Shown here: positions 7,411 to 12,488 of the stretch, piece after piece
How positions within the stretch are numbered: the stretch's first letter is position 1
How the letters are laid out: the number at the start of each line of letters is the position of its first letter
Assembly (NCBI GenBank): GCA_021201755.1
Contig: JAJQEI010000050.1
Span: forward strand, 56,110-120,109
DNA: 64,000 bases
Origin: Ruminococcus sp.
Lineage (GTDB): Bacteria > Bacillota > Clostridia > Oscillospirales > Ruminococcaceae
Direction of reading: 5' to 3'
Program-made: the position numbers and the translations under genes
The notes under the pieces: generated by a model
Seen by the model: the letters and a program-made list of their open reading frames with translations, nothing else
Databases searched by the model: none
Told to the model about the DNA's origin: nothing

Positions 7411-8304
7411 ATGAGCTGTGCTGAAACAGAAAATCCTGCAGCAGCACGGGGCAGAATTATTGCATCTGTGGGAGGTCTCTATACGGTAGAGACCTCTTGC
7501 AATATCTGTACCTGTAAAGCGAGAGGTATATTTCGAAAAAAAGGAATCATTCCGTATGTGGGAGATTATGTCAACTTATCAGAAGATCAGGTTATCTATG
7601 AGATTTTACCACGACGTAATGCAATTCTACGTCCACCTGTCGCAAATTTAGATCAAATTTTCTTTGTGGTATCTTCTTGTAAACCTAGTCCGAATTTACA
7701 ACTTCTGGACTCTTTTTTGACAGTGACAATTTACTTGAAAATCCAGCCAATTTTGATTCTAACGAAGGTGGATTTAGACGATGCACATGAGCTATACGAA
7801 TTATATGACCACGCTGGAATACCTGTGTATATAGTGGATTATGAAAAACCGAAATCAATTGCAGCAATTGGGGCACTTATGAAAAATCGTACCGGTATGA
7901 TGACTGGAAATTCCGGTGTAGGAAAGACAACACTCCTCAATGCAATTGAACCGTCACTAAAACTTCCAGTAAATGCAATTAGCGAGAAACTGGGGCGTGG
8001 AAAACATACAACACGAGAAGTGAGACTGTTTTCTTGCGCTGGCGGATATTTGGCCGATACACCTGGATTTTCGACATTTGAAGTAGAACAGTATGTGAAA
8101 ATGGAGAAGGAGCGAATCGCAGTGTGTTTTCCGGAATTTCGTCCCTATTTAGGAAGGTGTCGTTTCTTGGATTGTGCACATATATGTGAAAAAGGATGTG
8201 CAGTCGTAGAAGCAGTAATGGCAGGGAAGATAGCACAAAGTCGTCACACTGCCTATTGTAATCTTTATCAGATTGCAAAACAGAGAAAGGCATGGGAGAA
8301 ATGA
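7411..8304 (+). CDS. rsgA: Ribosome small subunit-dependent GTPase
   Basis: TKVD, GNSGVGKT, GRGKHTT, DTPGF, Zn finger CRFLDCAHICEKGC. Confidence 0.96.
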   Translation: MSCAETENPAAARGRIIASVGGLYTVETSCNICTCKARGIFRKKGIIPYVGDYVNLSEDQVIYEILPRRNAILRPPVANLDQIFFVVSSCKPSPNLQLLDSFLTVTIYLKIQPILILTKVDLDDAHELYELYDHAGIPVYIVDYEKPKSIAAIGALMKNRTGMMTGNSGVGKTTLLNAIEPSLKLPVNAISEKLGRGKHTTREVRLFSCAGGYLADTPGFSTFEVEQYVKMEKERIAVCFPEFRPYLGRCRFLDCAHICEKGCAVVEAVMAGKIAQSRHTAYCNLYQIAKQRKAWEK

Positions 8305-8924
8305 ATCGTGCGGTAATATTTGCCGGAGCACCAGTACAACCGAAATTACAACCACCGGTACCGAAAGCATCATATTATATCTGTGCAGATGCAGGTTTAA
8401 GGCTCGCAGATGCATTGCAAATACAACCAGATTATATTATTGGCGATTTTGATTCGCTGCAGTATGTGCCGACATCAATAGACTATGAAAAAATAAAAAA
8501 AGTTCCTGTACAAAAGGACGAAACAGATACTATCCTTGCTGCACAATACGCAATATCTCAAGGATGTACAGAGTTGGTTTTTTATGGAGCATTGGGTGGC
8601 AGAATAGATCATATGATTGCCAATATACAAATGCTGCAAATGCTTGCAAATGATGGCGTGCAAGGAATTCTGATAGATGAAAATCATTGGATTACTATAC
8701 AACGAAATTGTATTCAACATTACATGAAACGTGATGGCTATTTTTCACTATTTGCTTTGACGGAACAGTGCAAAGGCGTAACAATGACAGGTGTAGCGTA
8801 TCCGCTGCAAAACAGTACTTTACGCTCGAATTTTCCGATAGGAGTTAGTAATCAAATCATTGAACCTGAAGCAACAGTCAAGGTAGATGATGGAGACTTG
8901 TTGATCATTTTCTCAAAAGATTAA
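8301..8924 (+). CDS. thiN: Thiamine pyrophosphokinase
   Basis: CADAG, GDFDS, KDETDT, GALGGRIDH; ATGA overlap with the rsgA stop. Confidence 0.93.
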   Translation: MNRAVIFAGAPVQPKLQPPVPKASYYICADAGLRLADALQIQPDYIIGDFDSLQYVPTSIDYEKIKKVPVQKDETDTILAAQYAISQGCTELVFYGALGGRIDHMIANIQMLQMLANDGVQGILIDENHWITIQRNCIQHYMKRDGYFSLFALTEQCKGVTMTGVAYPLQNSTLRSNFPIGVSNQIIEPEATVKVDDGDLLIIFSKD

Positions 8925-8996
8925 AAATCATGAATAACATTAAGCCACCTCTAAAACGCCCCAAAATCAATTTTCATTCATCAAAGACAAATAGCT

Positions 8997-9464
8997 TCAC
9001 ATTTTCAGGATACATGGAAATATCATGGTTACTGTTTTAACTTCGTTTGCATCCAACGTCATGGAAGCTGATGCGTTCCCGTTAAAATAGGAAAATAGAT
9101 ATGGATTCAATCCACCGCCGGAAACAGAATCATATTGTATACAAGTGGAAGATAAATCCAAAGTCTGCACTTCTTCTGTTGTATTTTTTATTTCTAAATT
9201 GAATAATAGATCTTGTTCATCCACATAATCCTTTATCTCATCATCGTACATCGTGGACAGTTCCTCACCGGAATAAATGCCATACGCCGATGATATGATC
9301 TGTAAATTATGAAAGGAAAAAGTTTCCTGTGGTTGATATACCACTCGTTCTGTGATCTGATACTTGACCGTATTGATGTAAATGACACGTATTACAAAAA
9401 GTGCAGCGAGAATAGCGGCAAGTAAGATGCCAATTCCCAAACGCAGCTTACGACTTCTGCTCAT
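8997..9464 (-). CDS. Membrane-anchored hypothetical protein (DUF5028-like), last recognisable gene of a decayed ABC-exporter cluster
   Basis: Basic N-terminus plus one TM helix, then a beta-rich domain (LLFNLEIKNTT); overlaps the ABC ATPase stop. The DUF assignment is recalled resemblance only. Confidence 0.45.
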   Translation of the reverse strand: MSRSRKLRLGIGILLAAILAALFVIRVIYINTVKYQITERVVYQPQETFSFHNLQIISSAYGIYSGEELSTMYDDEIKDYVDEQDLLFNLEIKNTTEEVQTLDLSSTCIQYDSVSGGGLNPYLFSYFNGNASASMTLDANEVKTVTMIFPCILKM

Positions 9465-9980
9465 GTAAGAATCCTCCCCGCTTCCATCTTGAATATCTGG
9501 TCAGACAATTGCTCTAGTTCCTCTCTGTCATGACAGGCAATCAGAATGACCGATCCTTTTTCTTTCAAATCATGTAAAATGGCACGAACATTCTGCATGC
9601 CGCTTTCATCAATCGCATTGATTGGTTCATCCAGAATGACAAGCTTCGGATCTCCCATTACCGCTGCCGCAATGCCAAGCTTTTGCTTCATGCCAAGCGA
9701 ATATTTTCGGTAGACTCTCTTGTCCATTGGATCTAATCCGACACGGGACAGGATCGCACAAATCTGTTCATAAGCATTTTTAGATTCTGAAATCCTGTAT
9801 ATCCATGTATTTCATCATTCAGCAAAATCGTTCCGGAGGTGGGGCGAATGAGTCCGCATATGGTTCGCATCAGCATGGTTTTTCCACAGCCGTTTTTCCC
9901 TTGCACGCCGTAGACATTACCGCCTTCTAATTCCAATGAGATATGATCCAGAACGGATACGCCTTTGATGGTTTTGCAGA
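9461..9980 (-). pseudogene. ABC transporter ATP-binding protein, multiply deleted and frameshifted
   Basis: Walker A GKNGCGKT is in one frame; signature YSLGMKQKLG, Walker B ILDEP and the H-loop are in another. The Q-loop region between LLNDE and IHGYTGFQNL is missing, and no native start is seen. Confidence 0.88.
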
Positions 9981-10083
9981 CCTCTACAGGCGGTTCTGCT
10001 CGGGAATTTTCTTCGGATGTACGACGGCTCTTAAAAATAAATGGTCGAATTTCTGAAACATAGTTGCAATGAAGAAAAAAGCG

Positions 10084-10092
10084 TGGTATAAT
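10084..10092 (+). promoter_or_regulatory. Extended -10 promoter (TGgTATAAT) for the recombinase
   Basis: tggtataat at 10084-10092, about 155 nt upstream of the ATG. Confidence 0.6.
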
Positions 10093-10189
10093 AGAATTGT
10101 GGAAAGAATCAGCGACTAGAAAAAAATAGAAACTTTTTTGCGGTTGTTTGCTAGTTGTTGATATTCCTAGTAAATCAGGTTTCAAAACT

Positions 10190-10229
10190 TTTCTAATTGC
10201 ACCAAATTTGTATTTGGTGCAATTAGAAA
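10190..10229. repeat. Perfect 18-bp inverted repeat with a 4-nt centre, just upstream of the recombinase RBS
   Basis: tttctaattgcaccaaat-ttgt-atttggtgcaattagaaa. Confidence 0.95.
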
Positions 10230-10247
10230 TAAGAATGAGGTGTTTCC

Positions 10248-11240
10248 ATGGAAATTAATCGTAAGGAATGTCCGGATTTTTTTCTGGATTATATTTTGTA
10301 CATCACTGTTACAAAGTCTCTTTCTGCACGTACTGTGCAAGAATACTATCTCGATATTCGATTATTTTTAAAATATCTTAGAATGATGCATGAATCACAA
10401 TTTGCAGATGTCAATGATTTGCGACAGATTCCAATTAAGGATATGTCTGTTGAAATGTTAGAAAATGTACAATTACAAGATCTGTATAATTATTTATACT
10501 ATGTTACGGAAGAACGGGAAAATCATGATCGTGCTAGAGGAAGAAAAGTATCGGCATTACGTAGCTTTTTTCGGTATTTGTGCTATCACCAGAATGTAAT
10601 TTCACATGATCCAACAGAACGACTAGAACTTCCATCGCCTAAAAAATCGCTTCCTAAATATTTAACTCTGGAGGAAAGTAAAAAATTACTGCAATCTGTT
10701 AATAGTACTTACCCAGAACGAGATTACTGTATACTTACGCTTTTTTTAAATTGTGGTATTCGTCTAAGCGAATTGGTAGGTCTGAATATGCGAGATATCA
10801 ATTTTCAAGAATCAAAAATACGTGTTTTGGGCAAAGGCAACAAAGAACGAATGGTATACTTGAACGAGGCTTGTATGAAAGCACTACAAGCATATTTAGA
10901 AGTACGAGAATCGCCCGATAATTCGGATGAAAAGGCTGTATTTTTAAGTAAACATCATACCCGAATCAGTAAACGACGTGTGCAGCAGATTGTGGAAAAT
11001 GCACTCGTACAAGCTGAATTAGATGGGCAAGGCTATTCCACACACAAGCTGCGTCATACAGCAGCAACACTAATGTATCAATATGGCGATGTAGACGCCT
11101 TGACATTAAAAGAAGTGCTGGGACACGCCAGCACTTCTACAACGGAAATATATACGCATTTGTCAAATCAAATTTTAAAAGACGCCACGGACAGTTCTCC
11201 CCTTGCACATTTTGAAAAACGTGACCCAAAAAAGAAATGA
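10248..11240 (+). CDS. xerC: XerC/XerD-family tyrosine recombinase
   Basis: RDYCILTLFLNCGIRLSEL, VLGKGNKER, HKLRHTAATLMY, LGHASTSTTEIYTH; all catalytic residues are present. Confidence 0.9.
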   Translation: MEINRKECPDFFLDYILYITVTKSLSARTVQEYYLDIRLFLKYLRMMHESQFADVNDLRQIPIKDMSVEMLENVQLQDLYNYLYYVTEERENHDRARGRKVSALRSFFRYLCYHQNVISHDPTERLELPSPKKSLPKYLTLEESKKLLQSVNSTYPERDYCILTLFLNCGIRLSELVGLNMRDINFQESKIRVLGKGNKERMVYLNEACMKALQAYLEVRESPDNSDEKAVFLSKHHTRISKRRVQQIVENALVQAELDGQGYSTHKLRHTAATLMYQYGDVDALTLKEVLGHASTSTTEIYTHLSNQILKDATDSSPLAHFEKRDPKKK

Positions 11241-11242
11241 TA

Positions 11243-12488
11243 TTAACAAATATTTTGAATAGTATGCCATGCACATTGTCCTGCGTATTGTCCTAAACGC
11301 CATGCACATTCCAGATTATAGCCACCGCATTCTCCGTGAAGATCTAGTATTTCTCCAGCAAAAAACAATCTAGGGATATACTGAGATTGTAGAGTTGCAT
11401 CTATTTCAGTGATTGGAATGCCACCTGCTGTTACTTGTGCTTCTTGCCATGTACCTCTAGATAGTATTGGAAATCTCCAGTTGTGGCAAAGCTTTGCTAA
11501 GTTTTCTAGTTCCGAAGCGGTCAACTGATAAGTCTGTGTATCCATCCATCGACACTGTAACACCGCTTTGTCGTAAAAGAGATATACCAATTTTCTTAGG
11601 AAATAATCCTGTCAGAAAATTTTCCAATTTCCACATAGAGCGAATACTATAAATGTTCCCCAAATTTGTTAATGTCTGTTTAATTGATTCGTTTGGCAAC
11701 AAATCAACAGAAAGATAAGATGGATTCTTTCCTTCACTACATTTTGCTAATAAATTCATTATACAAATACCAGAAAGACTATGATCTGTAAATTGAATTT
11801 CACCGTATTCTTCTAATAAGCACTTTCCTTCTGCTGTATATGCAGAAACATTTCCTTATATGCGAACGCCCTTTAAACCACGCAATTGTTGTGGCTGCGT
11901 GTAAAAAGGCACTAGTGCTGGTTTTACAACAGAATGAGAATGACCTAATTTTTCTAATACAGAAAACATCTTGCCATCCGAACCGGTTTTGGGTGCTGCG
12001 AATCCACCTGTTGTAATAATAACTGCTTTCGCTTGAAAAGTATCCAGATTTGTTTGAACAAGAATATTGTCTTTTCGTGGGGATAAATTATAAACTATAC
12101 AATCGCAATACGTTTCTGTACCGATTTGTTCTACAGTAAAACGTAACGCATCTAGAACAGATGCAGCCTGATTACTTTGAGGATATTGATGTCCTTCTTG
12201 ATCCTGACGGCAAAAAACACCCATTTCAGCAAAAAAATCTTGCGCATTTAAAGTTTGTTTCATAACTTGAGGCAACAATACAACGAGCGAGCCACGATAT
12301 GTATCAAGGCGTTGATTTGCGTTTCCCAAATTACAGCGACCATTTCCAGTAACCAATATTTTTTTCCCTATGCAAGAATTTTTTTCACAAATACAGACGT
12401 TACATTCTGGCGAAATTCATTTGATTGCAATAGCAGCGGCGAGACCAGATGCACTGCCGCCACTGATTAAAATATCTGTCTGTTTCAT
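11243..12488 (-). pseudogene. HI0933/YhiN (BaiN-like) flavoprotein pseudogene
   Basis: GGSASGLAAA, GKKILVTGNGRCN, TTGGFAAPKTGSDG, AQVTAGG, FAGEILDLHGECGGYNL. Lesions: in-frame TGA (12417-12419), in-frame TAA (11856-11858) and a 4-bp GATG duplication near 11541-11550 causing a frameshift. Confidence 0.92.

Follow-up and report, generated by a model that had tools for sequence, protein, structure and literature searches.

Resolution of chromosome dimers is close to universal. The two-recombinase systems, XerC/XerD-dif of E. coli and CodV/RipX-dif of B. subtilis, have a terminal, single-copy site with an 11-6-11 layout, and the arms bound by XerC and XerD are distinct. Reviews and surveys of single-recombinase systems describe XerS, XerH, XerA and XerL. 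XerS/difSL of streptococci and lactococci (PMC1914069, PMC2965235) joins one recombinase to a 31-bp site that lies immediately upstream of its gene at the terminus, in genomes that carry FtsK, and the arms of difSL are imperfect and unequal. XerH/difH of Helicobacter and Campylobacter (PMC3325230, PMC5241119) also pairs a single recombinase with a gene-linked site, and the inequality of its arms sets the order of cleavage. XerL/dif of the Legionellales (PMC9765430) and XerA/dif of archaea (PMC2958812) combine a single recombinase with an AT-rich palindrome, about 30 bp long and located at the skew maximum, and XerA is reported to act without FtsK. A gene-linked, fully symmetric dif system was not found in the openly searchable literature, in which the reviews and surveys of single-recombinase systems make no mention of Clostridia. 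A genome-wide prediction of dif sites in 2011 failed for C. perfringens and C. beijerinckii, and its C. botulinum sites fell 137-175 degrees away from the skew shift point. For true Clostridia, the openly searchable literature yielded no dif site that is assigned with confidence.

The locus described here belongs to a Ruminococcus draft genome (2.37 Mb, 53 contigs, 98% complete) and lies in a window of 64,000 nucleotides, the whole stretch of DNA that was analysed. A perfect 18-4-18 palindrome (10190..10229) is followed, 18 bp after its end, by the gene of a Xer-type tyrosine recombinase that begins at 10248. The palindrome is very likely the dif-type site of the chromosome, and the downstream gene its Xer recombinase, as judged from sequence, copy number, conservation and position at the terminus. 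The locus has in common with XerS/difSL the lone recombinase, the site immediately upstream, the terminal position and the presence of FtsK in the genome, and with XerH/difH the single recombinase and gene-linked site. The single recombinase and the short, AT-rich palindrome at the skew maximum are also those of XerL/dif and XerA/dif, which belong to other lineages. For XerL and XerA, the gene is in general not known to lie beside the site on the chromosome. XerC/XerD and CodV/RipX offer the closest protein profiles, but they are two-recombinase systems with distinct arms, whereas the genome and family studied here have one recombinase, identical arms and a gene-linked site. In architecture alone the site resembles those of Cre/loxP and Flp/FRT, with perfectly inverted identical arms, an asymmetric spacer that sets direction and an implied homotetramer; in those systems, which belong to plasmids or phages, the arms are 13 bp and the spacer 8 bp long, and no homology is claimed beyond the tyrosine-recombinase superfamily. 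By analogy, the module would work like XerS/difSL or XerH/difH, yet it belongs to neither family.

The palindrome and the dif-like 28-mer

The preliminary description of this DNA had reported two adjoining elements upstream of the recombinase gene, a dif-like 28-mer and the palindrome, and re-reading of the sequence found both at their reported coordinates. The palindrome reads TTTCTAATTGCACCAAAT TTGT ATTTGGTGCAATTAGAAA, with arms at 10190-10207 and 10212-10229 around a 4-nt spacer. It is unique in its genome even when 6 mismatches are allowed, and its folding as single-stranded DNA is much more stable than that of shuffled controls (z = -8.1). A covariance model built from curated palindrome sites (R1) matches 34 nt of it (10193..10226, that is, G000:C38:66302-66335) with 49.3 bits, and the next match in the genome scores 19 bits. 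Two inverted arms, each about 11 bp long, flank a centre of 6-8 bp, and the sequence is AT-rich and non-coding. Read in the usual format of tyrosine-recombinase sites, the putative 11-6-11 core is ATTGCACCAAA / TTTGTA / TTTGGTGCAAT (10196..10223), in which TTTGTA (10207..10212) would be the asymmetric region of strand exchange, presumably 6 but perhaps 8 bp in extent. The cleavage positions that this core implies are predicted from the usual layout, the invariance of AAAT..ATTT and the covariation of the arms. The palindrome has all the features by which dif is recognised in PMC9765430, namely a length of about 30 bp, AT-richness, palindromic and non-coding sequence, variable flanks and a position at the skew maximum.

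The arms are identical over 18 bp, in contrast to the unequal arms of difSL, and they show none of the asymmetry on which cleavage order at difH depends. Both the left arm of difH, AGTTATGAAAA (PMC5357621), and the order-wide consensus, AATTATACAAAA, end in a run of A beside the centre. An exact 13-nt copy of the half-site AATTGCACCAAAT occurs at 44043-44055 of the window, 34 kb from the palindrome, with no adjoining partner arm; by our own estimate about 0.07 such matches are expected by chance genome-wide. By our own count, the order-wide consensus arm TTTTGTATAAT agrees at 8 of 11 positions, and the window arm TTTGGTGCAAT at 7 of 11, with what we take to be the XerD arm of E. coli dif, TTATGTTAAAT.

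The 28-mer TATTCCTAGTAAATCAGGTTTCAAAACT (10162..10189), the headline element of the preliminary description, turned out to be a chance resemblance outside the system. It agrees at 15 of 22 arm positions with the B. subtilis-type dif ACTTCCTAGAATATATATTATGTAAACT, a reference that the supplement of PMC3025954 confirms for B. amyloliquefaciens. In the 2.37-Mb genome, 190 positions reach at least 15/22 against the same reference, and a search of all orthologous upstream regions found the 28-mer in none; it was therefore rejected as dif on both its score and its lack of conservation. A genome-wide search for a canonical dif, of the 28-bp Firmicutes consensus with distinct arms, gave a best match of 17/22, and the genome therefore holds no canonical dif.

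Conservation of the site

In all 15 same-genus orthologs with a site visible upstream, the core of the palindrome is kept while the flanks have diverged. The shared core, AATTGCACCAAAT-N4-ATTTGGTGCAATT, lies just upstream of the recombinase gene, and in most of these orthologs its 26 bp end 25-45 bp before the start codon. Thus, the comparison of orthologous upstream regions that had been suggested separates the two elements: the palindrome is conserved (15/15) and the 28-mer is not. More distant relatives (those compared carry the labels Oscillospiraceae, Ruminococcaceae, Acutalibacteraceae, Faecalibacterium and Gemmiger) have sites of the same architecture with other arms, among them TTATACAAAAT, TTTCGCTAAAT, TTGAACAAAAT, CTCAACAAAAT, CGCAACAAAAT and AGTCACAAAAT. 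Each change on one arm is mirrored on the other, which gives sites of the GCACC, ATACA, TCGCT, GAACA and CAACA types. Across 58 distinct sites, 11 of the 15 arm positions have changed on both sides, and doubly changed cells number 158 as against 47 in shuffles. Paired cells make up 90.6%, compared with 35-45% after sliding of the partner columns, although the paired percentage is partly built in because the sites were chosen as near-palindromes. The inner AAAT..ATTT columns are nearly invariant. A palindrome match lies near the gene in 69 of 110 fetched loci (67 of 110 after curation), where about 0.002 per locus would be expected by our own estimate. These patterns indicate that the symmetry of the palindrome is maintained by selection.

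The R1 model matches 213 of 251 genomes of the host order, mostly as the two strands of one site, and among 201 genomes drawn from the whole class it gives a single strong match in 102. Several individual genomes deserve mention. One locus (L011, on G001:C11) has an extra sequence resembling a half-site, AATTACACCAAA, about 12 nt upstream of its palindrome, which could be an accessory binding site or a remnant. G002 has a weak second match (G002:C1:1395342-1395378, 28.8 bits) where a 40-kb block of positive skew (1387-1427 kb) borders on the negative-skew replichore around it, and this block may be an inverted or inserted segment. G026 (97% complete) has two strong sites, at G026:C42:5104-5137 and G026:C24:58501-58534, whose spacers are TTGC and GAAT as printed. 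One of them lies by the recombinase gene; the other is in an ordinary chromosomal setting (aspartokinase, SpoU methylase and a group II intron), not in a phage. Both a strain mixture and a true second site are possible. Additional R1 matches in G240 were considered as dif copies and discarded, being GC-rich, terminator-like hairpins. G011, a 98% complete genome of the same genus, is without a recombinase ortholog and without an R1 site; gene and site may have been lost together or may be hidden together in an assembly gap.

The central region TTTGTA is flipped relative to most same-genus sites, which have TACAAA, and the same flip is found in G010 and G007. Among eight genomes the orientation of the centre relative to the replichores is mixed, which does not support a fixed orientation and suggests that it is free. 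The flips could plausibly arise by template switching at a hairpin. A one-step inversion was rejected as the source of the flip in the host genome: synteny with G002 shows several rearrangements around the terminus that cannot be reduced to one event. G007:C92 is listed with a length of 176457, the same as that of the host contig C38, but a default (megablast) blastn comparison of the two contigs returned zero matches at E<=1e-20, and the equal length is probably an oddity of reporting. Public reads yielded matches to short contig fragments of relatives, among which no joints and no spacer heterogeneity were seen.

Sites of the ATACA type are carried by eight viral contigs, and the genus-specific site was sought in viral contigs and found in none. 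In two small viral contigs (L202 and L203) a single visible copy of the site has a recombinase ortholog on one side and, on the other, Rep and Zot/pI genes of the filamentous-phage type. An IMEX, which lacks an integrase and integrates by means of the host Xer, would be flanked by two copies. The ortholog of L203 is full length and 46% identical to the protein studied here, and that of L202 (268 aa, 42% identical) is apparently truncated. This arrangement suggests that phages may integrate at the palindromic site, which would make it a likely docking site for phages that lack an integrase.

Position at the replication terminus

Between 8 and 12 kb of the window the GC skew passes from about +0.15 to about -0.17, and genes converge in the same interval (8000..12000). 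The orientation switch that the preliminary description had placed at the module is thereby borne out as a signature of the replication terminus. The cumulative G-C maximum of the contig falls at window position 8903, 1.3 kb from the palindrome.

The distance between site and cumulative G-C maximum was measured in 11 genomes, the maximum being local to ±20-40 kb around the site except in G000 (the host genome), G002 and G032. Besides the 1.3 kb of the host, it is 13.5 kb in G002, 2.4 kb in G032, 7.8 kb in G060, 5.9 kb in G093, 0.25 kb in G234, 0.02 kb in G260 and 0.12 kb (121 bp) in G007, a member of the same genus. In three genomes from other families of the class it is 0.04 kb (G306), 0.30 kb (G301) and 0.02 kb (G425). 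The site is thus within about 300 bp of the skew switch in 6 of the 11 genomes and within 8 kb in at least 9. Two genomes separate site and gene. In G032 they are 8 kb apart, the site being the closer of the two to the skew maximum; in G007 the gene is on a separate contig of uniformly positive skew, and the site is 121 bp from the switch. The palindrome follows the terminus, not the gene, and this argues against its being purely an operator.

The immediate surroundings of the module are decayed. To the left, an ABC transporter ATPase gene (9461-10041, minus strand) is broken into frames that span profile positions 5-66, which include Walker A, and 118-202, with about 50 residues gone and a stop between them. 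To the right, an HI0933-like flavoprotein gene (11243-12356, minus strand) is split into two frames, about 265 nt apart, that cover profile positions 41-186 and 190-243. Both direct neighbours of the module look like pseudogenes. Upstream, a promoter-like TTGCAA-17-TATAAT with a TG extension (10064..10092, plus strand) was recognised by consensus match alone (1 found, 0.9 expected from shuffles); if it is used, the palindrome falls in the 5' leader of the recombinase transcript. A GAGG ribosome-binding site (10237..10240, plus strand), read from the sequence, is located 7 nt ahead of the ATG. A search for polar 8-mers that orient FtsK gave no clear motif, the most skewed words resembling coding-strand bias.

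The recombinase and the search for a partner

The gene at 10248..11240 (plus strand) encodes a 330-aa tyrosine recombinase with a SAM-like N-terminal domain and a catalytic domain (Pfam PF02899 and PF00589, the latter at 135 bits). The catalytic residues R172, K199, H266, R269, H293 and Y302 are invariant in an alignment of 12 ortholog sequences (A1). All four NCBIfam Xer models score the protein below their equivalog cut-offs: XerC, the best, gives 214 bits (cut-off 335), XerD 202 (330), XerA 187 (220) and XerS (NF003462) 163 (267). Thus, the protein is not XerS, which is also longer (356 aa), and it falls short of XerA even though XerA is among its best matches. Solved structures give the same picture, with 110 bits to XerD, 108 to XerA (5hxy) and a weak 59 to XerH (5jjv). 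The recombinase is the sole member of its 90% cluster. It is a Xer-clade enzyme outside every named Xer family.

No second Xer was found among the PF00589 matches of the 98% complete genome, of which this is the sole Xer-type gene. The remaining matches comprise a 409-aa integrase, a fragment, a broken integrase whose N-terminus is of the phage type, and an invertase flanked by hsdS genes. This invertase (L004, G000:C18:3745-6704) is a 270-aa tyrosine recombinase between two opposed hsdS genes with shared repeated ends, arranged as in phase-variable type I restriction systems. The genome check that had been proposed for a second Xer and a canonical dif therefore came back empty on both counts, with no XerCD pair and no canonical dif found. 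FtsK with a gamma domain is present (PF09397, 99 bits, in an 856-aa frame on contig C16; presence alone is recorded), which sets the genome apart from the FtsK-independent action reported for XerA.

A XerD above cut-off was found in none of 41 genomes of the host family, which represent 40 genera, and a XerD-like match besides the ortholog occurs in G491 and G485 alone. In G491, the sole such member of the family, a near-cut-off XerD-like gene (328.9 bits) adjoins the recombinase ortholog (G491:C27:1-3368), and this neighbouring pair is possibly an ancestral arrangement. The single-recombinase state is real for the host lineage. Among the genomes sampled across the class, 65 have the site and a XerD-like gene, 37 the site alone, 47 a XerD-like gene alone and 51 neither, and these numbers refute a mutual exclusion of site and XerD. 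Twelve genomes that represent eight other families carry an ortholog of the recombinase (43-48% identity), which lies no more than 1.5 kb from the site in 7 of them and no more than 6 kb in 10 (distances of 1-14 kb occur in other families); several of the 12 have a separate XerD-like gene tens of kb away. In the XerD-bearing genomes G306 and G425 the site remains a perfect palindrome and lies at the skew switch. The single-recombinase state looks derived, unless XerD is needed nowhere for the palindromic site.

Alternative explanations

Four other readings of the locus were weighed. The gene might be the XerC-like half of an ordinary XerC/XerD-type pair, its partner missing from the draft. XerC is indeed the best NCBIfam match, the assembly is 98% complete and not closed, so that a partner could sit in the missing 2% of a 53-contig draft, and 65 of the 102 site-bearing genomes of the class have a XerD-like protein, with which the recombinase may ancestrally work; the gene pair of G491, a member of the same family, points in this direction too. 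However, none of the 41 family genomes reaches the XerD cut-off (one comes near), XerD-like matches beyond the ortholog are confined to G491 and G485 in that sample, and the arms are identical over 13-18 bp, perfectly so even in genomes that carry XerD. Perfectly identical arms would leave two different proteins with no cue to tell them apart, and we consider a missing partner unlikely. A palindrome serving as an operator alone, bound by a repressor or by the recombinase as a DNA-binding protein and taking no part in recombination, would account for its place between a promoter-like element and the start codon, for its overlap with a TTGACA -35 box in L025 and L036, and for its single copy, as an autoregulatory operator would be. 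But nothing about an operator would tie it to the replication terminus in 11 genomes, or keep it at the skew switch where the gene is 8 kb off (G032), on another contig (G007) or 1-14 kb away (other families), and in L053 and L116 the palindrome lies downstream of the gene; this explanation is very unlikely.

Protein-binding sites that trap replication forks or organise the terminus, like the Ter/RTP system of B. subtilis, would explain the precise position at the skew switch in many genomes, with the link to the recombinase being incidental, and the B. subtilis Ter sites are themselves inverted repeats beside the rtp gene. Yet what is conserved beside the site throughout the class is a tyrosine recombinase with an intact catalytic set, and recombinase core sites have just this layout of identical arms that flank a short asymmetric centre. 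Fork traps need polar arrest, which a perfect palindrome cannot produce, and filamentous-phage-type genes adjoin the site in two contigs. A fork trap is accordingly given very little weight, and slightly less still goes to the view that the gene encodes the integrase of a degenerate mobile element and that the palindrome is its attachment site. The gene-linked site does resemble integration modules, as was noted for XerS (PMC1914069), and the flanking genes are decayed, but the module has a single copy per genome with no flanking repeat pair, it is apparently vertically conserved across the class at the terminus, and its profile matches are of the Xer type rather than the phage-integrase type.

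Proposed mechanism and implications

The reading of the palindrome as dif-type site and of its neighbour as the cognate Xer is thus the preferred one. The idea of a self-contained, XerS/difSL-like module of recombinase and site at the terminus, advanced in the preliminary description, gains support from the palindrome, the skew switch and the lone Xer. The evidence supports its fallback suggestion, in which a homomeric recombinase would use the palindrome as its symmetric core site. Among the observations that run counter to the dif reading are the 13.5 kb between site and skew maximum in G002 and the two strong sites of G026.

Dimer resolution by this module, its FtsK dependence, stoichiometry and autoregulation can be outlined as follows. 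Identical recombinase monomers would bind the two identical arms (ATTGCACCAAA in the 11-6-11 reading), and two sister sites on a chromosome dimer would synapse as a homotetramer at the closing septum. Strand exchange would then proceed across the centre TTTGTA, the sole asymmetric part of the site, which would force parallel alignment as in loxP and FRT. FtsK would probably deliver the terminus to the septum and license the reaction, although the mixed orientation of the centre is unexpected if an oriented contact with FtsK matters. Since the palindrome separates the likely promoter from the start codon, its occupancy may also dampen expression of the recombinase, as a side effect rather than a main function.

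Each new single-recombinase version of the system (XerS, XerH, XerA, XerL) has been informative on how the reaction is controlled. A symmetric dif raises the question of how the order of strand exchange and control by FtsK are set without asymmetry of the arms. In practical terms, a symmetric, gene-linked dif would mark the terminus exactly in drafts and metagenome-assembled genomes of the dominant anaerobes of the gut, and the module suggests a compact recombination tool, of one protein and 30-40 bp, for genetically difficult Clostridia.

A broader proposal, which we advance tentatively and hold to be somewhat less probable than its opposite, is that much of the class Clostridia, with such major gut genera as those labelled Faecalibacterium, Ruminococcus, Gemmiger and Acutalibacter, resolves chromosome dimers by an undescribed Xer, a site-linked homotetramer acting on a lox-like symmetric dif whose centre is the sole, freely oriented directional element and for which XerD is dispensable. 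With the orientation of the centre free, it could make no difference to activation which of the arms is turned towards FtsK. The canonical-looking XerD that some two thirds of the site-bearing genomes retain would then be a leftover partner or have another job, and its dispensability would explain the clean loss of XerD from the host family. The patchy occurrence of XerD beside the same site offers a natural experiment on the transition from two recombinases to one.
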